Notes: a model not told the origin generated them from the sequence alone. A stretch of 64,000 nucleotides of DNA from Clostridia bacterium (GCA_017453245.1 JAFTKM010000020.1:877-64876), one strand, 5' to 3'. Shown: positions 540 to 37,251, counted from the first letter of the stretch. Numbers and translations: made by a program.

Positions 540-579
540 TAGGAAAAATATGAGGCACAATGTTCGCTGAGAACAATCG

Positions 580-682
580 GGCTCGAAGTAGGAGCGGTAG
601 TGAATGACAGTTAATAACTGTCAGAGCCGCGAATGACCGAGCGCGCAGTTCGCGCGAGAGTCGAGCCCTGTACTTTCCACCA
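580..682 (+). repeat. structured repeat copy 1, ending in an exact duplicate of the tRNA-Val 3' end
   Basis: GGCTCGAAGTAGGAGCGGTA, then hairpin 606-622, then GAGCCGCGAATGACCGAGCGCGCAGTTCGCGCGAGAG. Positions 661-682 are identical to 518-539 of tRNA-Val (22/22). Confidence 0.85.
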
Positions 683-706
683 CGGGAGAAATCCCATACG
701 AAAAAT

Positions 707-1052: not shown

Positions 1053-1214
1053 GGCTCGAACGAGTTTGAGTTCCATTCGAGTCGCATAGTCCTGAGTCTT
1101 CGTCTTCGCAAGTCTCCGACTTGCCTCACTCCTTGCTTTGTCGAACATCGCTCACAAAAGCAACACTCAGTTGTTTTTGTATCGCTAACCCGTAATCCGC
1201 TCCATAAAAGACAC
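1053..1214. repeat. structured repeat copy 3 (divergent, inverted relative to copies 1 and 2), ending in a duplicate of the tRNA-Gly 3' end plus flank
   Basis: Positions 1189-1214 are identical to 988-1013 (26/26). The core, about 1070-1187, aligns to the reverse complement of 33768-33887 with blocks of 9/10 and 29/36 identity. Confidence 0.75.
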
Positions 1215-5680: not shown

Positions 5681-7285
5681 ATGGCAAAAGAATTGAATAT
5701 TAACTTGATCCCTAAGGAAAAGCTTGTCTTTGCCAACACGGGCGAGAAGATAAGGGATCAGAAATTTGAAGATAAGCCGATTGGATATTTCCATGATGCT
5801 TGGAATCGTTTTTGCAAAAACAAGGCGTCTATTGTAGCCGCTTTAATCATTATTTGTATAATTTTGTTTGCAATTATAGTGCCTTTCTTCAATGCGAGCG
5901 GCAGCGGTACCAGCGCAGACACTAGATACATGAAGAAAACTCCACGTAATCTTCTTCTTTCTAAAATCGGAATTGCCACAGGCTATGAGACTAGCGAGTA
6001 CCGTGATACCGCACTTATCCAGTTTGCAGCTATCGGTATTGGTTCAAGAGAGGATCTTCTGAACATTCCTACCATTGGAGATGCTCTTGCGGAGGACGAC
6101 TTCCTTCAGCCTGTTAAAAAGATCAACGACTCTTACTCCGTACAACAGGGTAAGAATAAGACTCTCTTCTACGATGCGACCGTAGATACTTATCTTCAGG
6201 TAGGATTCACGTATGAGTACGTTGAGCAGAGCGAGTATGCAAAGATTCTCGCTTGGCAGGAAGAGACAGGCATTCAGGTTCTCTATCCTATGATTGCGGA
6301 GAATGAATATAACTTCTATTATTCTACCAGCGGCGTATCCGATCCGAACTGGTGGTATAAGACCAACAACAAGGGTCAGCCTGTTCGTATCAATCAGTCC
6401 GGAAACGCGACCACTATCAAGTACAATGATATTTCCGAGGTCAAACTCGTTGACAACTATATGCGCGACTCTGAGGGTAATCTTAAGTATTGGACCTACT
6501 CGGGTGGTGGAGATGACACCACTGCTATGTATAAGGTGAGAGTTCTTTACTACAACTACTATCGTTACAACCACGACGGCAGAGAGCCTCAGTTTATTTT
6601 CGGTACTGACAGCGTAGGTTATGATCTTGCTTATCGTATGGCTATCGGTATTCGTCTAAGCCTTATCCTCTCCGTTTGTATATTCGCTATTAACTTCATT
6701 CTCGGCGCTATTTACGGCTCTATCGAGGGTTACTACGGCGGTGCTGCCGATCTTACGATGGAGTTTATCAGCTATATTCTTTCGGGTATCCCCTTCATCG
6801 TTGTATCCACCTTGTTCCAAATGCATCTGGCCGCCAAGGTCGGACCGATACCAAGCTTACTGTTCGCATTCGTTCTGACCGGATGGATAGGTACGGCGAG
6901 CCTTGTAAGAACTCAGTTCTACAGATTTAAGAATCAGGAATACGTTATGGCGGCGAGAACTCTTGGCGCACGTGACAGAAGAATTATTCTTAAGCATATA
7001 TTCCCGAACACGCTCGGTACGATCATTACCTCGTCCGTTCTTGCTATTCCGGGTGTTATCTTCTCCGAATCTATGCTCTCATACCTCGGTATAGTTAACC
7101 TCGGTGGAACAAAGACTACCTCTCTCGGTACGCTCCTTTCTGATGCGTCCACTATCTGGAAGTCTGTTCCTCACCTTATGCTATTCCCGGCAGCGGTTAT
7201 ATCGTTGCTTATGATATGCTTCAACCTGTTCGGCAACGGTCTTCGTGACGCATTCAATCCATCGCTAAGAGGAGTGGAGGAGTAA
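5681..7285 (+). CDS. ABC transporter permease (OppC/DppC-like) with a ~260-aa extracytoplasmic loop after TM1
   Basis: The ATG at 5681 follows GGGAGAAAG and the upstream stop. The C-terminal half is OppC-like (RTLGARDRRIILKHIFPNTLG). Confidence 0.8.
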   Translation: MAKELNINLIPKEKLVFANTGEKIRDQKFEDKPIGYFHDAWNRFCKNKASIVAALIIICIILFAIIVPFFNASGSGTSADTRYMKKTPRNLLLSKIGIATGYETSEYRDTALIQFAAIGIGSREDLLNIPTIGDALAEDDFLQPVKKINDSYSVQQGKNKTLFYDATVDTYLQVGFTYEYVEQSEYAKILAWQEETGIQVLYPMIAENEYNFYYSTSGVSDPNWWYKTNNKGQPVRINQSGNATTIKYNDISEVKLVDNYMRDSEGNLKYWTYSGGGDDTTAMYKVRVLYYNYYRYNHDGREPQFIFGTDSVGYDLAYRMAIGIRLSLILSVCIFAINFILGAIYGSIEGYYGGAADLTMEFISYILSGIPFIVVSTLFQMHLAAKVGPIPSLLFAFVLTGWIGTASLVRTQFYRFKNQEYVMAARTLGARDRRIILKHIFPNTLGTIITSSVLAIPGVIFSESMLSYLGIVNLGGTKTTSLGTLLSDASTIWKSVPHLMLFPAAVISLLMICFNLFGNGLRDAFNPSLRGVEE

Positions 7286-26213: not shown

Positions 26214-29200
26214 ATGAAACAACGTTTGCAATCACTTTTTAGATTTATGCGGCGCAACCGCGCTTTGACCAAGATCATTTCCTTCGCCCTTTCATTAATC
26301 TTGGTATTCTACGTGATACCATCAACCATATACACCAAAGCCGCGGAGCTTTTGGATGGCTCGGATGAGCCTATCTCCGAGGTTGATGCCTCGTCGAGCT
26401 CTGCAGGCTCTACAAATACTTCACAACCGACCGGCGTGCTCTTTGAGGACATATCCCTAAGAGAAGAAAGCGTAAAGCACTTCCACCTAGAGGACGGAAC
26501 ATACCTCGCCGCTCAGTACAATTACCCCGTACATACCCTCGACAGTGATGGTGCGTGGCAGGATATAGATAACGCACTCTCAGAGTCGGGCAGTGAGTTC
26601 ATCAACAGTAACGCTCGAATCAAGTTCGCTAAGAAGATAAACGGCTCGAGCGAGCTCTTTGCCCTCCACGACGGAAATACTAAGCTCACCCTCACGCTTA
26701 TCGACGCCATAAAAGGCGTAGTAGGCGAGGTAACGAATAACAGCGACGCAGAAGCGGATACGAAGCTCCAGAAGATGATGAATCTCGAGAAGCTCTCCGC
26801 AAGCGTTATATACCGAGATATCCTCGACGGAGTAGACCTCGAGTACGTAGCCTACTCAATGAACGTCAAGGAGAATATTATAGTCAAGGAGAAAAAAGAC
26901 TCCTACACCTACTCCTTTGAGCTCAAGCTCAACGGTCTCACTCCCACCCTCACCGAAAATGGAGATATTGAGATCAGAGAGGATGGCGCGGATGAGATAA
27001 AGTACCTTATCCCCGCACCCGTGGTGTTTGACGCAAACGGTGAGCACGCACCGAGCACCGCATCCGCATATACCCTCACGCACAAGAACGGTAAGAAATA
27101 TATCCTTACTGTCACCGTAGACAGCGCGTGGATGAATGATGAAACGAGAGCCTTTCCCGTGACGGTGGATCCGACGGTAGAGGATGCTAATACGCAAATA
27201 ACGGATACATATATAGATTTTCAGAATAGCACCTTTAGAGGAAATACAAGTACGCTTCTTTATGTTGATAGCAGGAAAAATGCCTATTGGTCAAGTGAAA
27301 ACCTTCCCACTATTCCAAGATCAGCAAATATCGTTGATGCTACGTTTAAGATCACTGTAGCAGGATTAGGTATGAACAGTTATATCGGTGTATACGATCT
27401 TGTGACAGGATGGGATAGCAGCTTATGTGCAGACTACTACTCTAATTACGGGGACGGAATACTGAATAGCCTTGCAACGGATTACTGCTACGTAACTGGA
27501 GTAGGAAATTACACCTTTGATATAACGAGAATAGTTAAGTCTTGGTATGACGGTAATGAAGGAGGAAATATTCTCTTTCAGTATGGAATAGGCTTTGCAC
27601 CTCTTAGCGGTTATTCCGCAAGCGTTTGGTTTCATTCTAATGAAGCAAGCGATAGCAGCGTTAGACCTACCCTTACTATTACCTACAAGGATATGAAGGG
27701 AGTAGAGTCATATTGGCCCATCACTTCTCATGGCGCGGGCACGGCAGGCTCCGGAAGCGTAAACCTTGCAAACGGTAATCTTGTGTTTACAATTCCTACG
27801 CTTACTGCAACGGATAGCATCTTCTCATTTACACCTACTCTGGTGTATGATGCTTCTATGTCCGGTAAGGCTTATTACGATCAGACCTCCGGGATAGGCG
27901 TAACGACCCCGTTTCTCGGATACGGTTTTAAGCTGAATATGAATGAGACACTCAGATGCCAATCTGACGATGACGTAACCGTATACTACGTATATTCGGA
28001 TGCAGATGGAACTGAGCACCGTTTATTGGAAGATGGAACCACAAATACACACAAGGATGAGGACGGTCTCGGACTCACTCTTACCACGGATTCAAGCGGA
28101 AACGTTATTATATCGAGCGAATCAGGTGGTATTAGATTCTTCGAGAAGGTATCTCATGCAGATTTTGGTACCAGATGGAGACTCTCGTATTATCAGGATG
28201 TCTACGGCAACAGACTTGTGTATTCGTATATGCAAATTTATTATGATCTCTTTAAGCCGACTAAGGTATCCTTACTTCCAAACGGTCATACAACAGCGAT
28301 TGATCTTTTAGAGCTCCGTTATCATTCAACTACCGGCAAGCTTATAATGGTATATAATCCCGCGACGGAGGCTGCCGCAGTGCTGAGATACTCGAGCACG
28401 TATAACGGAGACATAGTGTCCGGCGGATATATGTACTTAAGACAGATAGATTATGCTTACGGAAATTCTTCTGTTACAAGCGATAATTGGGATGCCTTTG
28501 CTCTTGATGTAAACTCAGCTACCAACATCTCCGTATACAGTACAGCTAAGTATAACTATGACTCTGCGGGCAGACTTATTGAAGCGCAGGACGTAACAAA
28601 TGGAACTTCGATTAAGTATACTTGGCAGAATTATAATTTAACCGGAGTAAAAGAATACGCGGGAACAACTCTCGGTCAGCAGCTTGGCTTCAGCTACGAC
28701 GTAGGCTTTGCCGAAGTGCGAGCTACAGGAAACGACGAGATACTTGACACATCTGACGATATCCTCACACGTTATACTATGGATATCTACGGCAGAGCGG
28801 TAAGCGTTTACTCCTGCTCGTCCGACGGAAGCGAGATGTACGGAGCGACCTCGGGTGTGTATGATGATGCAAGCCGTGAGAATAATCTTAAGAACAAGGC
28901 TGTAGTCGGCGGCTCAGCGGTCAATTTTCTTCTCAACGGAGATTTTGAGGAGTTTGATGCAAACGGTAATTTCTTGCATTGGACCCACGATAGCTTAGTA
29001 CTCGATTATGAATCTTATCCACAGAGCGACTTTGGTTATAATATGGCAGGATTCACCCCGACAACCACTCAGGATGCGACCTTATCTCAGACGGTATTCC
29101 TCCCAGCGGGTGAGTACAATTTGTCTATGATCTACGTTTCAAGATCATGTCTTAATTATGAGGCTGAGGTAAGCGTTACATCTACGGTAGGCTCGGGACT

Positions 29201-32200
29201 AAGTCTTACAGAGAGCTTGTTTCTCAACAAGGAGTCTGTAACTCTTAAAAAGTCTTCGTTCTCCACGTCCTTTGAGATTGCATCTTACCAAAGCGGAGGA
29301 GATTACGTTGAGATAAAAATTACTGTGGGAAGAAACGCGGCAGGTAGTAACTCTAGAATTTTCAAGATCGACAACGTGATGCTCTCCAATACCGTTGGCG
29401 CTGCAGATTACTCGTTTGTAAGATATGGAAACTTTGAAGCAAATTCGCTTGGTTCGGGCAGCACTATAGTACCTGTGAGTCGACATTTAGCATACATTAA
29501 TGAATATTCCATAGATACCGCGTATATTAACGGCACTATTTATGATTCCTTAAGGATAGAACATGGCTTAGAAGACTGCTTTGTGCGGCAACGTATATAC
29601 GAGGTCAATGAGGATGATCTTTTATATTACGGTACACAAGACTTTCAGAGCAACGCTACCGGGGATTATATAATATCCGGTTTTGCCTATGCGCCCAATG
29701 CTATCTGTACAGACGATTCCGACGTAAAGATCAGCGTATACGTTCATTACTATCAGGGCGAGGGAAAGGTTGACGAGTTGGTAATTCACGAATTTGAATT
29801 CCTTCCCGGAATAGATAACTGGCAGTTTCTTAGTGGCTCGTTCAGCACGAAAATTATACCGGAATCCGAGAGTGAAAGAAATAAGTATGTTTGCGTTAGC
29901 GCTATAGATATTTATTATGAATATAATAATCAGCCTTACGGGTATGCGCTCTTTGATAATATATCTATCATCAGAGCAGACGTAGATAATTACGTGGAAT
30001 ATGCGTATTACACCGAGGGAGACAAAAAAGGCTTGCTCTCTATGAAGCGCACTTCGGACTATACGGAATACTACGATTACGATGAGAATAAGAACCTTAG
30101 TGCCGTAGCAACGAGTGACGGTGATATGACGTTCTACTACTATAATTCAAGTAATCCTCATCAGCTCTCGTATATTGTGCAGAGCAGATATGCATATAAT
30201 GCAGAAAACTACTATCCCGTGACGAATGCATTACCCTTCTCGTCGAGTAATATATATTACAAAACCAAGACGGAGTATAGTTATGACAATTATGGAAACG
30301 TAGAGGGAATTTTAGTTTCGTCTATGAATGAGGATACAGAAGTAAAGACGACTCGCACTTCGTTTACTTATGAGGTTACAGCAGGCTCTGTAATATTTGG
30401 AGCACTACTATCCGAAACAGATGAAACAGGAACGACTATTCGCTACTATTACGACCCCGACACGTGTATGCTTGATGCCACGGTGAACGAGACCTCGGGC
30501 AACGGTCTTGTGTATAACTACGATAGCCTGCGCAGACTTGTCTCAGTAACTCCCGGGCAGTACGTATCGAGCTCGTCCTATACCGAAACAACCAATGCTG
30601 AAAAGGTAGAATATACCTACGGTACCGACCATATGTTGGAGGAGATATCCACCGTTTCTACCAACTATACCTTCTCTTACGATGAGTTCGGTAACAGAGT
30701 ATGGGTAAAGGCGGGAGATAACACTCTTGCATCCTATGAGTACGCAGAAAAGAACGGAAAGCTCAAGAAAACTACCTATGGAAACGGATTTGTCGTAGAA
30801 TATGTGTATAATGACCTTGAAAATCTTTCCGAGATATGGTATACTGAAGGTGAAGGCGCGAGTGTTAAAGCGTACGAGTACGAGTATACCACAGACGGAC
30901 AGATACACAGAGTCAAGGATAACATAAACGGAAGGCAGACAGTTTACACTTACGATAGCCGTAACAGAGTAGCAAATATCTCAAGCAGTTCTACGGACGA
31001 CTCGTATAATGATCTGTTTACGTACGTAGAGTATGACGATATTGGTAGAGTAACTTATAATTCTACTTATGTAAACATACTTGGAAGTACAACGTATGAT
31101 GATGGCGCGGTTGCTTATATGTACTCCTATAATGGAGAAAATAATCAGCTGAGTCAAATGTTAATAAATACTACAGGTGCAAACGGCGGTATCGACTATA
31201 CCTACGATGAACTGTTTAGGTTGAGTACGGAAGATGTGACTCTGGGATCATTTGACGTATCTTACACCTACAACTACAAGAATTACGGTGATTATACCTC
31301 CGGTCAGATTGGAAGCGTAACGACAACGGTTAATGAAACCACGACCAAGAGTGCAACATACTCATATAGTCCTGATGGTAATATTACCAAGATAACTTAT
31401 AGTGACGGCACTTACGTAACATATACGTATGACGACCTTGGCCAGCTGACAAGAGAGTGTAATACAGCGCTGGGTTATAGCTACACGTACACCTATGATA
31501 ACGCGGGTAATATTACTCAGACTACTAAAGAGTTGATCGATGCCGATGACGATGATGGACCTATCGCAATATATGAAATTGGTTCCGAGTCGGAAACCTT
31601 AGCCGTTAATCCGAATTTATCGTTATTACCGCTGACCAGAACTTATAGCTATACGAACTCTCAGTGGGGAGATCTTTTAACTGCATATAACGGAACGGCT
31701 ATAACCTATGATGATATAGGAAATCCACTCAGCTATTACAATGGCTCAAGTTACATCTTCACGTGGGATGGACGCAGACTTGCTACCGCTGTTAAGGGCT
31801 CCAATTCTATGTCCTTTACATATAATGATGACGGGCTTAGAGTGACTAAAACCGTTAACGGCGTTGTAACCACTTACTATTACCAGGGCTCACTTCTTAT
31901 AGCGGAAGAAACAAATTCGCAAATCTTAGTTTACATATATGATACTAACGGTTCACCTGTGGGCTTTAAGTACAGGGGCGCGGATTACGAAAGTGGCGTT
32001 TGGGATGCTTATGCTTATGAGAAAAACATTCAAGGTGATATAGTTGCGGTATATGATGTCGCAACCGGTAATAAATTGATAGCATATAAGTACAATGCTT
32101 GGGGTGTTTGCTCTACAAGCTACTACAACAGCGGTTCTACCACTACTGCAACAAAGAATTCGTTTAAGTACAGAGGATATTACTACGATTCCAACCTCGG

Positions 32201-32870
32201 ATTGTATTATTTGCAGAGTAGATACTATGATCCGAATACTTGTAGATTCATAAATGCGGATGGATATGTATCAACAGGGCAAGGATTGCTTGATTATAAT
32301 ATGTTCATGTATTGCAATAACAATCCTGTAGTGTTTAGTGACGAATCCGGATATGCTCCTAAATGGATAGAAACGATGATAGATATTGCTTTATATTTTG
32401 TTTCGGCAGTAATATCCGTGGCAACTGCAACCATAGAAACTACTCATAATGTGATTGAAGGAGAAGGAATTATTGATTCAATGGCCGCGGGGGTTGAAAC
32501 AGGAATAGCCACCTTTGGAACAATCAATAATAAGGTAAATGAAATTTACTACAACAACTATTCTACCGGAAATAGTGAATTGACATCGAGTAGTTATCAA
32601 GGTGGATATATTAACCGATGGGATCGCCTAGATTATACTAAGCAACAGACTGAGCAGAGCACATATAATGCTACTGCATGGTTATATTTTAGCGAATATA
32701 ATCTGCATATGTATGCATGGTATGCGTGCGGATGGGCGTATGATACAAAGATTCCTGTTTTTTCGGACATAGCACATAGTGCATATTCCGCAGAAGTTGA
32801 GGTCGGGAAAATGGATGAGAGACCGTTTGTAATGTTCGGAACTCTTGTCATAGGTTATCTGGGATTATAA
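26214..32870 (+). CDS. RHS/YD-repeat polymorphic toxin (2218 aa) with a variable C-terminal toxin domain
   Basis: GGAGG RBS and an N-terminal signal-anchor. Many YD repeats (YSYDNYGNV, FSYDEFGNRV, YTYDSRNRV, YTYDNAGNIT). RHS core end YRGYYYDSNLGLYYLQSRYYDPNTCRFINAD...MYCNNNPVVFSDESG, then a ~170-aa unrelated tip. Confidence 0.9.
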   Translation: MKQRLQSLFRFMRRNRALTKIISFALSLILVFYVIPSTIYTKAAELLDGSDEPISEVDASSSSAGSTNTSQPTGVLFEDISLREESVKHFHLEDGTYLAAQYNYPVHTLDSDGAWQDIDNALSESGSEFINSNARIKFAKKINGSSELFALHDGNTKLTLTLIDAIKGVVGEVTNNSDAEADTKLQKMMNLEKLSASVIYRDILDGVDLEYVAYSMNVKENIIVKEKKDSYTYSFELKLNGLTPTLTENGDIEIREDGADEIKYLIPAPVVFDANGEHAPSTASAYTLTHKNGKKYILTVTVDSAWMNDETRAFPVTVDPTVEDANTQITDTYIDFQNSTFRGNTSTLLYVDSRKNAYWSSENLPTIPRSANIVDATFKITVAGLGMNSYIGVYDLVTGWDSSLCADYYSNYGDGILNSLATDYCYVTGVGNYTFDITRIVKSWYDGNEGGNILFQYGIGFAPLSGYSASVWFHSNEASDSSVRPTLTITYKDMKGVESYWPITSHGAGTAGSGSVNLANGNLVFTIPTLTATDSIFSFTPTLVYDASMSGKAYYDQTSGIGVTTPFLGYGFKLNMNETLRCQSDDDVTVYYVYSDADGTEHRLLEDGTTNTHKDEDGLGLTLTTDSSGNVIISSESGGIRFFEKVSHADFGTRWRLSYYQDVYGNRLVYSYMQIYYDLFKPTKVSLLPNGHTTAIDLLELRYHSTTGKLIMVYNPATEAAAVLRYSSTYNGDIVSGGYMYLRQIDYAYGNSSVTSDNWDAFALDVNSATNISVYSTAKYNYDSAGRLIEAQDVTNGTSIKYTWQNYNLTGVKEYAGTTLGQQLGFSYDVGFAEVRATGNDEILDTSDDILTRYTMDIYGRAVSVYSCSSDGSEMYGATSGVYDDASRENNLKNKAVVGGSAVNFLLNGDFEEFDANGNFLHWTHDSLVLDYESYPQSDFGYNMAGFTPTTTQDATLSQTVFLPAGEYNLSMIYVSRSCLNYEAEVSVTSTVGSGLSLTESLFLNKESVTLKKSSFSTSFEIASYQSGGDYVEIKITVGRNAAGSNSRIFKIDNVMLSNTVGAADYSFVRYGNFEANSLGSGSTIVPVSRHLAYINEYSIDTAYINGTIYDSLRIEHGLEDCFVRQRIYEVNEDDLLYYGTQDFQSNATGDYIISGFAYAPNAICTDDSDVKISVYVHYYQGEGKVDELVIHEFEFLPGIDNWQFLSGSFSTKIIPESESERNKYVCVSAIDIYYEYNNQPYGYALFDNISIIRADVDNYVEYAYYTEGDKKGLLSMKRTSDYTEYYDYDENKNLSAVATSDGDMTFYYYNSSNPHQLSYIVQSRYAYNAENYYPVTNALPFSSSNIYYKTKTEYSYDNYGNVEGILVSSMNEDTEVKTTRTSFTYEVTAGSVIFGALLSETDETGTTIRYYYDPDTCMLDATVNETSGNGLVYNYDSLRRLVSVTPGQYVSSSSYTETTNAEKVEYTYGTDHMLEEISTVSTNYTFSYDEFGNRVWVKAGDNTLASYEYAEKNGKLKKTTYGNGFVVEYVYNDLENLSEIWYTEGEGASVKAYEYEYTTDGQIHRVKDNINGRQTVYTYDSRNRVANISSSSTDDSYNDLFTYVEYDDIGRVTYNSTYVNILGSTTYDDGAVAYMYSYNGENNQLSQMLINTTGANGGIDYTYDELFRLSTEDVTLGSFDVSYTYNYKNYGDYTSGQIGSVTTTVNETTTKSATYSYSPDGNITKITYSDGTYVTYTYDDLGQLTRECNTALGYSYTYTYDNAGNITQTTKELIDADDDDGPIAIYEIGSESETLAVNPNLSLLPLTRTYSYTNSQWGDLLTAYNGTAITYDDIGNPLSYYNGSSYIFTWDGRRLATAVKGSNSMSFTYNDDGLRVTKTVNGVVTTYYYQGSLLIAEETNSQILVYIYDTNGSPVGFKYRGADYESGVWDAYAYEKNIQGDIVAVYDVATGNKLIAYKYNAWGVCSTSYYNSGSTTTATKNSFKYRGYYYDSNLGLYYLQSRYYDPNTCRFINADGYVSTGQGLLDYNMFMYCNNNPVVFSDESGYAPKWIETMIDIALYFVSAVISVATATIETTHNVIEGEGIIDSMAAGVETGIATFGTINNKVNEIYYNNYSTGNSELTSSSYQGGYINRWDRLDYTKQQTEQSTYNATAWLYFSEYNLHMYAWYACGWAYDTKIPVFSDIAHSAYSAEVEVGKMDERPFVMFGTLVIGYLGL

Positions 32871-32882
32871 GGAGGAAATGTT

Positions 32883-33506
32883 ATGAAAAAAGCAATTAGT
32901 ATTATTCTACTTTTTTCGTGTTGTTTCGCTCTATATTCTTGTAATTACACCTATCATGATCTGGAAAAATCATCTATTAATGAGTATATAGATCTCGTTA
33001 ATAAAAGTCATATAGGTCATTCCGATGTAGAGATAGATCATCCGGATTTTTTCTTGCCCAGTAATGCATTTTTAACGGATTATGCTTATTCTGAAGGAAT
33101 GTACTTTTGGCGTGAAGATGATATGCTTAGAGGATTATCGACTACGAGTGTTCGTCCGGACATCTCTTTTATATACTTAAGGTATGAAGATGAAACCTAT
33201 ACCGAGGCGAAGGCATTTATGTTAGAGAAAATCAAGTCTTACGGAGATAAGCGTTATTTATATGGCGATTATGTATTTTATGAAAACGCAAACTTTATTG
33301 AATTTAAAAAAACTAGAAGATTTCCGGAACAGTTCACTATGGCTTGCTACAATGATAGCAACAATACATTAATATTCATCGGTATGTATTCAGGTACGCT
33401 TAGGGGAGGATCGTGCCTAGAAAAGCGCTACTTGGATGATATCGATGGTAATTGGATATCATTTTTAGATACTTATTATGGCGAGGTTTACGATTTTAGC
33501 AAATGA
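32883..33506 (+). CDS. putative cognate immunity lipoprotein
   Basis: Starts 12 nt after the rhs stop with a GGAGG RBS. Lipobox LLFSCCFALYSCN. The position is typical of rhs immunity genes. Confidence 0.65.
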   Translation: MKKAISIILLFSCCFALYSCNYTYHDLEKSSINEYIDLVNKSHIGHSDVEIDHPDFFLPSNAFLTDYAYSEGMYFWREDDMLRGLSTTSVRPDISFIYLRYEDETYTEAKAFMLEKIKSYGDKRYLYGDYVFYENANFIEFKKTRRFPEQFTMACYNDSNNTLIFIGMYSGTLRGGSCLEKRYLDDIDGNWISFLDTYYGEVYDFSK

Positions 33507-33587
33507 AATTCTTTTGCACTGCAAAAAAAGCTTTATGATAAACAGTAAGCCAAGATAACTGAAGAATGATTTACTAAGTAACCACTT

Positions 33588-33615
33588 CCGAGAGCCCGAT
33601 TTGTCGGGCTCTCGG
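33588..33615. repeat. hairpin CCGAGAGCCCGATTTGTCGGGCTCTCGG, repeated at 35766-35790
   Basis: A near-identical GAGAGCCCGAT(T)(T/C)GTCGGGCTCTC hairpin follows both immunity genes. Confidence 0.7.
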
Positions 33616-33637
33616 ATGAACCGACTTTTGTCGTATT

Positions 33638-33767
33638 GCTATAACCTATGATGCTATAGGAAATCCTCTTAGTTATTACAACGGTTCCAGCTACACCTTC
33701 ACGTGGGATGGACGTAGGCTTGCTACCGCTGTTAAGGGCTCCAATTCTATGTCCTTTACATACAATG
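33638..33767 (+). pseudogene. 5' homology arm of the orphan rhs module (no start codon)
   Basis: Nucleotide homology to 31698-31827 of the main rhs gene (AITYD.IGNPLSYYNGSSY.FTWDGRRLATAVKGSNSMSFTYN). Begins abruptly and is out of frame with the downstream part. Confidence 0.8.
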
Positions 33768-33887
33768 TAGACAAGCAAAAACAATTGAGTATTGTTTTTG
33801 TGAAGTTGAAACCGCCCAAAGCAAGGAGCGGGCAGAGCCGTAGACTTGCGAAGGCGATAGTACGCGACTATGCGACGGTGGCGTAAA
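33768..33887 (+). repeat. structured repeat copy 4, inserted in the orphan rhs module
   Basis: ~120 nt that is absent from the equivalent point of the main rhs gene (31828-31836). Its reverse complement aligns with 1070-1187. It contains GGAGCGG and CAGAGCCG core words as in copies 1 and 2. Confidence 0.75.
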
Positions 33888-34967
33888 GGACTTAGAGTGA
33901 CTAAAACCGTTAATGACGTTGCAACTACTTACTATTACCAAGGCTCGCTTCTTATAGCGGAAGAAACGAATTCGCAAATATTAGTTTACATATATGGTAC
34001 TAACGGTTCACCTGTGGGCTTTAAGTACAGAGGCGCGGATTACGAAAGTGGCGTTTGGGATGCTTATGCTTATGAGAAAAACATTCAGGGAGATATTGTT
34101 GCGGTATATGATGCATCTACAGGTACAAAGCTGATATCCTATAGATATAACGCTTGGGGCGTATGCAGCCCTACGTATCATAACAGTGGCTCTACCACTA
34201 CAGCAACCAAGAACCCGTTTAAGTACAGAGGATATTACTATGACTCCGATCTCGGATTGTATTATCTGCAGAGTAGGTACTACGATCAGAACACCGGTAG
34301 GTTTATCTCTCCCGACTCCTTAATGTCCGGTGTAAACGGAAGTCTCCACGGCTTTAACCTTTACGCATATTGCTTCAATAATCCTATTTCGTTTATAGAC
34401 TCCGAAGGCAATTGGCCTACGAAGGAAGAAGTTTACAAGTGGATTGAGAATAAGAGAGATGAAGCTGAAGAAGTATGGAATGATGTAACTGAATGGGTAG
34501 AAAATAAAGTTTCAGAAATAGGAGCAGGCTCTGCAGGCGTAAGTCTTAGTTTTACATATGATCATGTGCTTGTAAACGTACAGGTTGGAATAGCAAAAGA
34601 TCGGCAAGGCAATAAAGATCTTCAAATATCGATTTCCTCGGGTTCGACCAGCGCGGCATATGGTTTATTCATCGGAGGGTATTCTACAATAACAAATGCC
34701 CCGAGTGTTGACAAACTTACTGGTGGCTATAGTCAGGTAGGTGGTTCATATGGTTCTTTGGCATATGGATTGCCTGTGGCTGGAGGTGTAGATGTAATAA
34801 AAATGAATGATGCAGATACGAATGACATTTATCACGGATTATCTTTTTCAGGAGGATTTGGAACGCCTGGAGTAGAAGCTCATTTTGGAACTGGAACTAC
34901 GTTTTCATATACTGGTGTTGTTGATACTTATAATCAAGTAATTAATTTTTTTGATGATCTACGTTAA
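33870..34967 (+). CDS. orphan RHS C-terminal fragment (core end plus an alternative toxin tip)
   Basis: High identity to rhs residues LRVTKTVNGVVTTYYYQGSLLIAEETNSQILVYIY...YRGYYYDS.LGLYYLQSRYYD, then a different Gly-rich tip. The ATG lies inside the inserted repeat and there is no good RBS, so expression is doubtful. Confidence 0.7.
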   Translation: MRRWRKGLRVTKTVNDVATTYYYQGSLLIAEETNSQILVYIYGTNGSPVGFKYRGADYESGVWDAYAYEKNIQGDIVAVYDASTGTKLISYRYNAWGVCSPTYHNSGSTTTATKNPFKYRGYYYDSDLGLYYLQSRYYDQNTGRFISPDSLMSGVNGSLHGFNLYAYCFNNPISFIDSEGNWPTKEEVYKWIENKRDEAEEVWNDVTEWVENKVSEIGAGSAGVSLSFTYDHVLVNVQVGIAKDRQGNKDLQISISSGSTSAAYGLFIGGYSTITNAPSVDKLTGGYSQVGGSYGSLAYGLPVAGGVDVIKMNDADTNDIYHGLSFSGGFGTPGVEAHFGTGTTFSYTGVVDTYNQVINFFDDLR

Positions 34968-34982
34968 CGAGGAGTCTGGTGC

Positions 34983-35717
34983 ATGAAAAAAGTATTCTTA
35001 ATTATTGGTTTTGTGGTTTTCTTAGTTGTTTTGTTTACATCAATTTTAAATGCATTCGTTAAGACGGATTCAAGTAAGGAGCAAATTCCAAATTTGGTTT
35101 TGACTGAAATTACAGATCAAGAGAGGCTTAATCGTTTTTATGAAAATGTTAGCGTTAAGATTTCAACAATTCAGCCTGTAAAATCTGTGATAGAAAGTTT
35201 TGATGTTAATGAAAACGGGATGATTGCACTTCTGCACCCTTCTTATTTGGGTGTACGATATATACGAATTATTTCCAGCGATGGTACATTTCAAAAGGCC
35301 TTCACATATAAAAACAACACGTCTGTTGCAGTAAGGTGGGTAGGAGACGATTTGCAGATATTCAACGTTCGTGGAGGACACGCGTTTACCATTGATATGG
35401 ATGCAAACATTCTGGGCGTTTATGATATCAAAGAAGATGAGGGCTGGAACGCATATTTGCATGATGTTTTGAAGACAGACGAGAAAAAGATTGGTGATAC
35501 CACTTATTCTGTTAGGAAGGATCACGGTAAGATAAGTTCCTTTGCTCAAAATTCGTCTAAGTTGGTGGTTACTACTGATGCTGATGAAAAGGTAATATAT
35601 GATGTTAGCGTGAAAGGATATGCAAATGCTGTTTTTGGAATAGGCTTTTTTGTACTATTTTTTGTGCTTGCGATTGTTGTTGCTATTATAATATTCAGGA
35701 AATATTCAAAGTATTAA
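34983..35717 (+). CDS. putative immunity protein for the orphan toxin tip (membrane anchored at both ends)
   Basis: GAGGAG RBS, N-terminal TM (VFLIIGFVVFLVVLFTSIL) and C-terminal TM (VFGIGFFVLFFVLAIVVAIIIF). Lies immediately downstream of the orphan tip. Confidence 0.6.
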   Translation: MKKVFLIIGFVVFLVVLFTSILNAFVKTDSSKEQIPNLVLTEITDQERLNRFYENVSVKISTIQPVKSVIESFDVNENGMIALLHPSYLGVRYIRIISSDGTFQKAFTYKNNTSVAVRWVGDDLQIFNVRGGHAFTIDMDANILGVYDIKEDEGWNAYLHDVLKTDEKKIGDTTYSVRKDHGKISSFAQNSSKLVVTTDADEKVIYDVSVKGYANAVFGIGFFVLFFVLAIVVAIIIFRKYSKY

Positions 35718-35765
35718 CCATTACTTAAAACATTGCAGAAAAACAATCAAAAATTTAAACTTACA

Positions 35766-35796
35766 GGAGAGCCCGATTCGTCGGGCTCTCTTTTTT
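35766..35796 (+). terminator. rho-independent terminator
   Basis: GGAGAGCCCGA-TTCG-TCGGGCTCTC followed by TTTTTT. Confidence 0.8.
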
Positions 35797-35815
35797 GCTT
35801 TGAGTTTTTAATATA

Positions 35816-35845
35816 AAAAGTGCTCACCGCTTAGGTGAGCACTTT
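35816..35845. terminator. bidirectional terminator
   Basis: AAAAGTGCTCACC-GCTT-AGGTGAGCACTTTT. Confidence 0.75.
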
Positions 35846-35865
35846 TGCTTATCTTTATTTACATT

Positions 35866-37251
35866 TTACTTATAAAACAGCTTGTAGATCACGGATCTAC
35901 CTTTTGTGTCTCTGTAGAACATAAGGCCTACGAGCATGATCAGTGTGAAGACAAAGAGATAGTAGAACGCCTGGAGCTTATACGCGTAGAACGCGGAGAA
36001 GATCATAAACAGACACGCGCCGATGGAGAGGGCGGGGAAGACAAATCTCTTCACAGGATGGAGATCCTTCGACTTTATCATCATATTGATAAAGATCGGG
36101 ATATACATAGCGTAGAGGGTGATGATAGGAAGCTCGTCATTCTCGAAGGAGATGATTGCAGGGAGCATACCGCGGATGAGGCCGAATTCCCACTGGAGCA
36201 TCCAGAGCAGGGTGATCGCGAAGGTGATAAGCGCCGCCTTTATCGGCATATTGGTTTTTTCGCCAAGCTTTGCGAGTACCTTTGGCGCGGGTCCTTGGTT
36301 TCTTACTGCGAGGGCATAGAGACCGCGGCAGTTGCCGATCATAACGCCGTTCATCGTGCCGAGGCAGGAGATGATAATAAAGACGTAGGCGATAGTGCCG
36401 AAGACTACGTTGCCGCCAAAGAGTTTAGTGAAGGCGATCTTAGGAAGGTTGTCTCCCGCAGCCATAATCTCCTCTGTGGGAAGAACGGATGCGATACCGA
36501 TGAAGTAGGCGATATACACCGAGATAACCACGAGCGTTCCGATGACCAGAGCCTTCGGGAGAGTTTTCTTTGCGTCGTGGAGCTCTGCGTTGATGCAGGT
36601 GGCGATTATCCAACCCTCGTAAGCGAATGCAAAGGCAACGGTAGCGCCGAAGAAGCCGCCGGATGTGCCTGCGGCGCCCGACATTCCTGCTGTGAGATTC
36701 TCAACGGTCTGACCGTTCACAAGGCCTACGATCGTTCCCGCTATTGCCATTATAGCGAGGGGGATAAGCTTGATCACGGTGGTGGATATCTGGAACTTAC
36801 CCGAGATCTTGGGAGCAAATATATTCAGAAGGAAGGACGCTGTAAGATAGGATGCAGTGATAAGAAGTCTTATATTTGCGTCGGAGATATTGAAGAGCGA
36901 GCAGGTGTAGTTTGCGGATACCCAGGCAAGGGTTGATGCGATAACGGGGTAGTAGATCACGGAGATAAACCAGCCGAGCATGTAGGCGAGTCTGTCACCA
37001 ACCTCTGCCTCGGCGTAGTCAACAATGCCGTTTACTTTCGCGTGCTTGCCCGCGAGAATAGAGAAGGTGTACGCACACACGGTCATAAGCACACCCACGA
37101 CGAAAACGGTCAGAATGCTCTTTACCACGCTTCCGCCGTTGTTGGTGAATACGGGTGTCGCCTTAAAGAATACACCCGAGCCGATTACGATACCTACAAC
37201 CATGCATATAGCGGTTATCAGACCGTACTTTTTCTTGAGTTCGTTGTTCAT
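35866..37251 (-). CDS. amino acid permease (APC superfamily)
   Basis: AAAGGAG RBS before the ATG at 37251, just after the trkH stop. About 12 TM, with N-terminal KKYGLITAICMVVGIVIGSGVFFK typical of APC transporters. Confidence 0.85.
   Translation of the reverse strand: MNNELKKKYGLITAICMVVGIVIGSGVFFKATPVFTNNGGSVVKSILTVFVVGVLMTVCAYTFSILAGKHAKVNGIVDYAEAEVGDRLAYMLGWFISVIYYPVIASTLAWVSANYTCSLFNISDANIRLLITASYLTASFLLNIFAPKISGKFQISTTVIKLIPLAIMAIAGTIVGLVNGQTVENLTAGMSGAAGTSGGFFGATVAFAFAYEGWIIATCINAELHDAKKTLPKALVIGTLVVISVYIAYFIGIASVLPTEEIMAAGDNLPKIAFTKLFGGNVVFGTIAYVFIIISCLGTMNGVMIGNCRGLYALAVRNQGPAPKVLAKLGEKTNMPIKAALITFAITLLWMLQWEFGLIRGMLPAIISFENDELPIITLYAMYIPIFINMMIKSKDLHPVKRFVFPALSIGACLFMIFSAFYAYKLQAFYYLFVFTLIMLVGLMFYRDTKGRSVIYKLFYK

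Follow-up and report, generated by a model that had tools for sequence, protein, structure and literature searches.

The 120-nt block at positions 33768-33887 of the stretch that we analyzed (hereafter the window: 64,000 nt from a Clostridia bacterium, GCA_017453245.1 JAFTKM010000020.1:877-64876) is most probably a secondary, "naked" insertion of a small repeat, here called R1, that has its usual home in tRNA copies, has spread within its genus, and has further inactivated a spare rhs module that already lacked a promoter and a start. We assign this reading a probability of a little under 0.8. R1 is a non-coding element of 115-120 nt, built of a terminator-like helix P1 followed by stacked helices P2-P5, that normally sits within an incomplete tRNA gene copy next to the intact gene and mostly on the tRNA strand. 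Having multiplied in this genus and spread to other places, it entered the core-homology arm of a displaced rhs C-terminal module, in the direction of rhs and without target duplication, replacing 5 nt of the codons for N-D-D-G for a net change of +115 nt.

The rhs locus and the insertion site

The main rhs gene of the window (26214..32870, plus strand, 2218 codons) was recognized from the ORF list, a Pfam RHS_repeat match (E=2.5e-18) and its alignment to the orphan module. The gene after it (32883..33506, plus strand) matched no Pfam family, and from its position only we presume that it is the immunity gene for the main tip. Downstream of this pair lies the orphan rhs, which has a 5'-truncated core with no start codon, a tip of its own, and a following gene (34983..35717, plus strand), also a presumed immunity gene from its position, for which Pfam gives just a weak DUF7383 match. 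Ahead of the orphan is a hairpin, CCGAGAGCCCGA-TTTG-TCGGGCTCTCGG (33588..33615, plus strand), that recurs at 35765-35792 with a T-run after it, closing the locus, and that is also found, together with an identical start of the rhs arm, in G062:C92 and G089:C43. The orphan rhs modules of three species share this beginning, in which about 22 nt separate the hairpin GAGAGCCCGAnnnnTCGGGCTCTC from the core, entered at ..ITYD.IGNP.. (window 33588-33637; L076, G062:C92:1251-1300; L075, G089:C43, about 6722-6760). Their common 5' start suggests that these modules are cassettes with a defined 5' boundary.

The left homology arm of the orphan (33638..33767, plus strand) is 91% identical to 31698-31827 in the main gene and 93% identical to contig G089:C8 of a sister species. 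The right arm, which is the end of the rhs core (33888..34306, plus strand), is 86% identical to 31833-32251 in the main gene, and against G089:C8 it is 91% identical and reaches 34419. Orphan rhs and CDI toxin-immunity modules are reportedly formed by C-terminal displacement (Jackson et al. 2009; Poole et al. 2011; Koskiniemi et al. 2014), and with its truncated core arm, own tip and small gene after it the window's orphan is typical of them. When we compared the sister-species locus (L073, G089:C8:44000-46857) with window 30814-36019, we noted that there is only one rhs module there, which carries a tip that follows the window orphan as far as 34419 and then rejoins the window at 35767. Because this single module carries the orphan-like tip, the orphan is the ancestral tip displaced downstream, and the main tip of the window is the newcomer.

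The R1 element occupies 33768..33887 on the plus strand, with a core at 33768-33882 (TAGAC...GGTGGC) and a tail, GTAAA, at 33883-33887. About 120 extra nucleotides in the orphan had originally been predicted, and by BLASTN the two arms are indeed collinear with the main gene, separated by 120 nt in the orphan and by 5 nt, ATGAC, in the main gene (AATG-ATGAC-GGGCTT, 31824-31838, plus strand), a net gain of 115 nt. The prediction named native rhs sequence as the reading that would overturn it. Homologue alignment shows otherwise: none of the other rhs homologues that this comparison found in the genus has the insert, the gap difference is about 115 nt where both arms align, and the orthologous main gene of G089:C8 and five further homologues have no counterpart of it. 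The best empty site is that of G089:C8, where the arms are 93% and 91% identical and AATG-ACGAT-GGGCTT stands against AATG-R1-GTAAA-GGACTT in the orphan. The prediction had also called for a comparison with strains whose orphan lacks the insert, to define the termini and any target-site duplication. Judged against uninterrupted homologues, we found no duplication at the window site, where 5 nt are replaced, at the G089:C6 site described below, or at two sites in G033.

The 3' boundary of the insert is uncertain by about 5 nt. We considered whether GTAAA could be native rhs sequence, which would make the event a clean 115-nt insertion into N-G-K-G, and rejected this; the empty site that it predicts, ..AATGGTAAAGG.., is absent from 201 genomes of the genus. 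Since that site is absent and related R1 copies elsewhere carry a similar 3' tail, CGTA(G/A)(A/T)AG, the tail appears to have arrived with R1, with the loss of five native bases. An exact search of the metagenome contigs for the window's 3' junction gave no match.

A perfect 9-bp inverted repeat brackets R1 plus 8 nt to its left, with its left half, GTCCTTTAC, at 33751..33759 on the plus strand and its right half, GTAAAGGAC, at 33883-33891. The right half includes the R1 tail and a G-to-A difference from the homologues (GGGC to GGAC). In G416 there is a 7/8 version of this repeat. As a general rule, pairing of the 3' tail with the left flank was rejected, as the mean best match over 51 copies is 3.96 nt against 3.78 nt in shuffled pairings (P about 0.09); the 9-nt match of the window is an outlier among these 51.

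Given that the window comes from a 1.59-Mb metagenome assembly that is 64% complete, we considered whether a repeat had been falsely joined into the contig. R1 does break this assembly, since R1 copies in arrays end four of its other contigs: two R1 copies, in arrays of an AATGCAA-type heptamer and the hairpin GTAGGGCGGGG, are found at the contig ends C10:19335-19463, C7:10451-10579, C16:24424-24543 and C3:1-120 of this genome, G000. However, both flanks of the insert belong to a single rhs segment, of which they form two adjoining halves that are collinear with the main gene, and an independent assembly of another species, G416, has the same arrangement, so we regard an artefact as most improbable.

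The R1 family and its fold

The insert had been predicted to belong to the same family as a repeat near tRNA genes at 1070-1187, and two lines of evidence agree. By BLASTN the two are 78% identical over 105 nt. To avoid circularity, we built a covariance model, R2, from 37 copies that all come from other species, with no copy from the window genome. R2 matches the insert over its full length with 112.6 bits (E=7.7e-23) and with all modelled pairs standard, and it matches 1068-1187 on the minus strand with 95.3 bits. This second R1 copy of the window (1068..1187, minus strand) is antisense to tRNA-Gly and has a T-arm-like remnant on one side and, on the other, 26 nt copied from the tRNA-Gly 3' end.

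The original prediction also linked the insert, through shared words, to two further modules (copies 1 and 2) behind tRNA-Val and tRNA-Asp, and this part did not hold. The words are common in the window, where GGAGCGG occurs 13 times and CAGAGCCG six times; copy 2 carries TAGAGCCG instead; and R2, run with filters off at E<=10, matched neither copy. We treat copies 1 and 2 as a putative separate family, B, whose modules in the window (555-690 and 780-915) read GGCTCGAAGTAGGAGCGG...GCGCGCAGTTCGCGCGAGAG followed by the last 22 nt of the tRNA. One R1 copy elsewhere, at L028, lies nested within such a module. Rfam 15 at gathering thresholds matched only three tRNAs, and at E<=10 over 33700-33950 and 400-1300 it returned nothing credible and no match to RtT (RF00391). 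Our literature search found no description of R1, and only papers on TLR and RtT repeats were relevant.

R1 is about 115-120 nt long with four helices. In the insert, P1 (33775..33801, plus strand; GCAAAAACAAT / TGAGT / ATTGTTTTTGT) has the A-run, hairpin and T-run of a terminator, with a predicted energy of about -9.9 kcal/mol, and all 11 of its 11 pairs covary in the family. The stacked domain P2-P5 (33812..33881, plus strand) comprises P2 (CCGCC, 33812-33816, with GGTGG, 33877-33881), P3 (GCAAG, 33821-33825, with CTATGC, 33868-33873), and P4 and P5, which form the variable inner stem; the conserved joining sequences are CAAAGCAAGGAG and CGACTATGCGAC. Among the first seven copies, compensatory changes were seen in 13 of the 29 predicted pairs, and among 90 distinct copies in 29/29. 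Across 94 aligned copies (90 distinct), standard pairs fill 92.8% of cells, against 34-50% when the partner columns are slid, a very large margin for an alignment that was fitted to the model and favours structure. The 29 covarying pairs argue for selection on the R1 fold itself.

Distribution of R1 and its home in tRNA copies

The window's own genome holds about 10 matches to the insert, one of them the minus-strand copy at 1068-1187. Within the genus, R1 was found in 29 of 37 genomes, with 1-14 copies each by our first model, often in tandem, and with copy numbers that reach 17. In other families of the order it was found in 1 of 24 with our first model, and across 301 genomes of the order it occurs in 10/152 genera, with 1-3 copies outside its own genus. 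R1 is thus expanded in its own genus and sporadic elsewhere in the order.

Nearly all of the out-of-genus copies are embedded in tRNA debris beside an intact tRNA, and copies of a tRNA 3' end, 18-38 nt long, often follow them. We observed three tRNA-linked arrangements that recur across different genera or families: tRNA-Leu(UAA), tRNA-Met, a terminator and R1, then an exact repeat of the last 18 nt (L082) or 38 nt (L079) of tRNA-Met and another terminator, in two families; tRNA-Pro(GGG), a terminator, R1 and a tRNA-Pro tail, in two other families; and 5' partial copies of tRNA-Ser or tRNA-Pro that have R1 after them and lie upstream of the intact gene. At four loci (L079, L082, L080 and L032) the anticodon arm of the cognate tRNA recurs just upstream of R1 as an inverted copy; this copy, antisense to some 20 nt of the tRNA-Met or tRNA-Pro, could pair with the tRNA or could be debris of insertion.

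In a census of 94 copies, 35 lie within 300 nt of an intact tRNA and 5 lie in rhs. R1 copies within 300 nt of an intact tRNA are on the tRNA strand in 23 cases against 12 in the genus sample and in 17 against 5 in an independent set of 66 metagenome copies, 40:17 in total. In the pairing positions, G-U pairs outnumber A-C mismatches by 28:10 in P1 and by 28:9 in P2. Because of this G-U excess and the bias toward the tRNA strand, the plus strand of the insert, which is also the rhs strand, is likely the sense strand of an R1 RNA. For the copy in rhs, the nearest tRNA gene of the window is about 32.8 kb away, and there is no tRNA-like sequence flanking 33768-33887.

R1 at other sites in rhs and elsewhere

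The nearest relative of the insert, at 93% identity, is on G089:C6, in a decayed rhs fragment about 200 nt further along the core (..YEKNLQG/R1/DIVAVYD..). The host rhs sequences there are just 73-79% identical, and the fragment also holds an in-frame stop. In G033, an rhs gene carries two R1 copies in tandem at its KYSYDAWG site. In G416, a Clostridia assembly from yak rectum, R1 lies at exactly the nucleotide that it occupies in the window, with junctions ..AATG/TAG.. and ..GGCGTAAA(A)G/GAC... Empty orthologous and homologous sites, together with copies at differing rhs and other positions, support the view that R1 is, or was, mobile into a non-tRNA site. This is what had been predicted from the window, and from alignments we can now name an empty site in G089:C8, a 93% identical copy elsewhere in G089, and copies in rhs of G033 and G416. 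The rhs copy is the cleanest proof of R1 movement, because the empty site is known from many homologues and the ends, the missing duplication and the effect on the frame can be read directly.

The G416 copy bears on whether R1 is kept in rhs for a function, either as an intervening element removed at the RNA level or as a controlled break between core and tip, inserted site-specifically. Its placement could reflect a strong site preference or long retention under selection, and long retention would argue against mere damage. The junctions in the window and G416 are the same, although the rhs cores are only 52% identical in protein and the R1 copies 73% identical; both copies keep the full fold (112.6 bits and 96.1 bits); the 9-bp stem brackets R1 in the window; and in rhs all five copies, at four loci in four species, are co-oriented with the gene. 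However, R1 is at this site in just 2 of 201 genomes of the genus; when we searched these genomes for a wider same-site pattern, only G000 and G416 were real and the remaining matches were chance. The other rhs insertions are at different positions, the G089 host fragment is also interrupted by its stop, and none of the 66 metagenome copies is in rhs (0/66). Both same-site copies break the frame, and gene conversion from other R1 copies could maintain the fold without selection in rhs. To our knowledge no self-splicing intron is near 115 nt, all known ones being far larger, and R1 matches no Rfam ribozyme or intron model. We consider a retained function in rhs distinctly unlikely and favor a secondary insertion that damages an already silent spare.

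Outside of rhs and tRNA debris we noted several other settings. At L019 (G007:C14:24693-24807), R1 lies within a non-rhs ORF (..TFTEEQKEIFEN / WSEYASLAEEAIFAYAFKLGMRI..) in the same direction, with the left junction ..ATG/TAGC. In three species R1 is antisense to lysS (L003, G000 C27:174430-174700; L012 in G023; L025 in G010), flanked by two copies of the last eight lysS codons and the stop (..FPTMKPEN-stop). Copies of pseudo-tRNA-Lys and pseudo-tRNA-Arg were seen to carry yet another small element, the third (GCATACCGC..hairpins..AATAGCAA), in their anticodon loops (G000 C13:395-455 and 640-750; L118, G089:C83; L096). In G089 this element is also nested in an R1 copy, where it splits CGAC/TATGCGAC.

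Reading frames and expression signals

The frame of the left arm is open from 33620, without a start codon, and crosses the entire insert to a TAA at 33884-33886 (plus strand), where the upstream arm had been predicted to end. R1 shifts the rhs frame by +1. Downstream, a mechanical ORF of 365 codons (33870..34967, plus strand) covers the core end and the orphan toxin tip. Its frame opens no earlier than 33861, and its first ATG, 33870..33872 (plus strand), is within the insert, in the 3' strand of helix P3. The original prediction had placed this start in the insert, in another frame and with no convincing ribosome-binding site, and we agree: there is no usable site upstream of ATG 33870, as the AAGGAG at 33823-33828 is 41 nt away and the nearest purine run, GAAGG, is about 17 nt upstream.

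That prediction left open whether the element silences the orphan or provides a start or promoter for stand-alone expression of its tip. In favor of the latter, ATG 33870 shares the frame of the 365-codon ORF and, given where that frame opens, is the only start on offer, R1 contains a perfect AAGGAG, and there is a weak sigma-70-like match, TAGACA-16-TATTGT, at 33768-33795. Against it, the AAGGAG and the ATG are not only too far apart but both are base-paired in the conserved fold, and in the G089:C6 and G416 insertions, read from their sequences, the same ATG is out of frame with rhs. Across 70 copies, ORFs from this conserved ATG have a median of 15 codons, and promoter-like sites number 9 against 9.9 +/- 3.2 in shuffles, which is the level of chance. 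A Rhs toxin tip without the Rhs shell and the N-terminal delivery part would not be exported, which we also count against a stand-alone tip. We judge it very unlikely that R1 gives the tip its own promoter or start. Because the ATG is within conserved P3 and out of frame in two other rhs insertions, it is probably incidental, a by-product of the R1 fold, and the same would be true of the AAGGAG as an expression signal.

Disruption is the side of the question that we favor. If the region is transcribed, R1 would put a hairpin and a U-run in the path. Its net effect is probably added damage to a spare that was already silent for want of a promoter and a start. R1 also splits the short 5' arm by which such a spare can recombine with the main gene, and 130 nt of it remain on one side.

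How R1 may move

At the four rhs sites where the native sequence is known, R1 has a sharp 5' end, T(A/G)AGC..., that follows a G (..ATG/ or ..GGG/), and its 3' end is ragged, with a few replaced or filler bases. Most copies have ..GGG(T) or ..ATG immediately to their left; in tRNA-linked copies the GGGT may belong to the module. R1 has no terminal inverted repeats: it begins with T(A/G)AGC.. and closes with ..GGNGG and a variable tail, and the helices are internal.

None of the usual enzymes tracks R1 in the genus. Y1 HUH transposase (PF01797) was found in 10/41 genomes, many of them incomplete assemblies, and is uncorrelated with R1; it is missing from several nearly complete genomes that have 7-14 R1 copies, and there is no R1 or R1-like end beside the Y1 genes. 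Reverse transcriptase was found in 6/41 genomes, TnpB in 1/41 and IS110 in 2/41. In the 1.5-kb flanks of R1 there is no recurrent protein neighbor, as all that came up repeatedly was lysS, at a single orthologous locus, and spurious frames that run through R1 itself, and R1 is absent from phage, plasmid and viral-contig collections.

We infer that R1 moves as DNA via a trans-acting function. Single-strand, hairpin-directed insertion of the IS200/IS605 type is our leading guess at the mechanism, held at well short of even odds, and it best fits the junctions because of the sharp 5' end, the ragged 3' end, the lack of terminal repeats and duplication, the arrays, the nesting and the orientation bias. 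An alternative is microhomology between donor flanks and targets (AATG, GGG), which would point to template switching during host replication. The consistent sense orientation of R1 in genes would be compatible with an RNA-linked step, and a further reading, unlikely in our view, is that R1 is a new small structured mobile element, independent of Y1 HUH, TnpB, IS110 and reverse transcriptase, that colonizes loops of tRNA copies, in this genus picks specific nucleotides of the rhs core, and inserts in the sense of the host transcript, either through an RNA-guided or RNA-mediated, intron-like step or by an undescribed hairpin-directed recombination.

Comparison with known elements and implications

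The closest parallel to the tRNA-linked copies is provided by the tRNA-linked repeats (TLRs) of E. coli, among them the RtT repeats that lie behind tyrT (Egan and Landy 1978; Rudd 1999; Stenum et al. 2021, PMC8144298). TLRs are short non-coding modules in tRNA and rRNA operons; their 3' end duplicates the final 18-19 nt of the stable-RNA gene ahead of them, and most have no known function. Out-of-genus R1 copies with tRNA tails, such as L079, L082, L080 and L032, follow the TLR plan. In contrast, R1 has no sequence or model similarity to these repeats and has a strongly covarying multi-helix fold; it also occurs within 5' fragments of tRNAs and in the D-, anticodon-, variable- and T-loops, in both orientations, and dispersed into protein-coding DNA.

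R1 resembles the PATEs, gene-less derivatives of IS200/IS605, and the REP/REPIN elements, which Y1 HUH transposases move in trans, in lacking terminal repeats and duplication, in its hairpins near both ends, in what may be a short adjacent motif, and in its head-to-tail arrays, nesting and orientation bias. It differs from them in that Y1 is present in so few of the R1-bearing genus's genomes, in its ragged 3' junction, and in its internal fold, which is a conserved multi-helix domain with invariant loops rather than a simple recognition hairpin. Rickettsia palindromic elements, Correia, RUP, BOX and ERIC are small, non-coding, multi-copy, structured and non-autonomous, and occasionally lie in ORFs. 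R1 is similar to these and to classical MITEs in size, structure, non-coding copy number and occasional location in an ORF, but it has no terminal inverted repeats or target duplication, and its ancestral location is inside tRNA fragments. Rickettsia palindromic elements are typically in frame, whereas the R1 insertions in rhs break the frame.

Unlike known orphan rhs modules, the orphan in the window has its recombination arm broken by a mobile element, 130 nt from the start of the arm, and we know of no described case in which such an arm is interrupted in this way. R1 ties long-unexplained modules behind tRNA genes, those with a copy of the tRNA tail, to a mobile element, and with model R2 the family, a cause of broken contigs in metagenome assemblies, can now be annotated. 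Mobile repeats of this kind can erode or block the short arms by which spare rhs tips are swapped into the main gene, and such erosion could affect how antibacterial toxins change in gut Clostridia.
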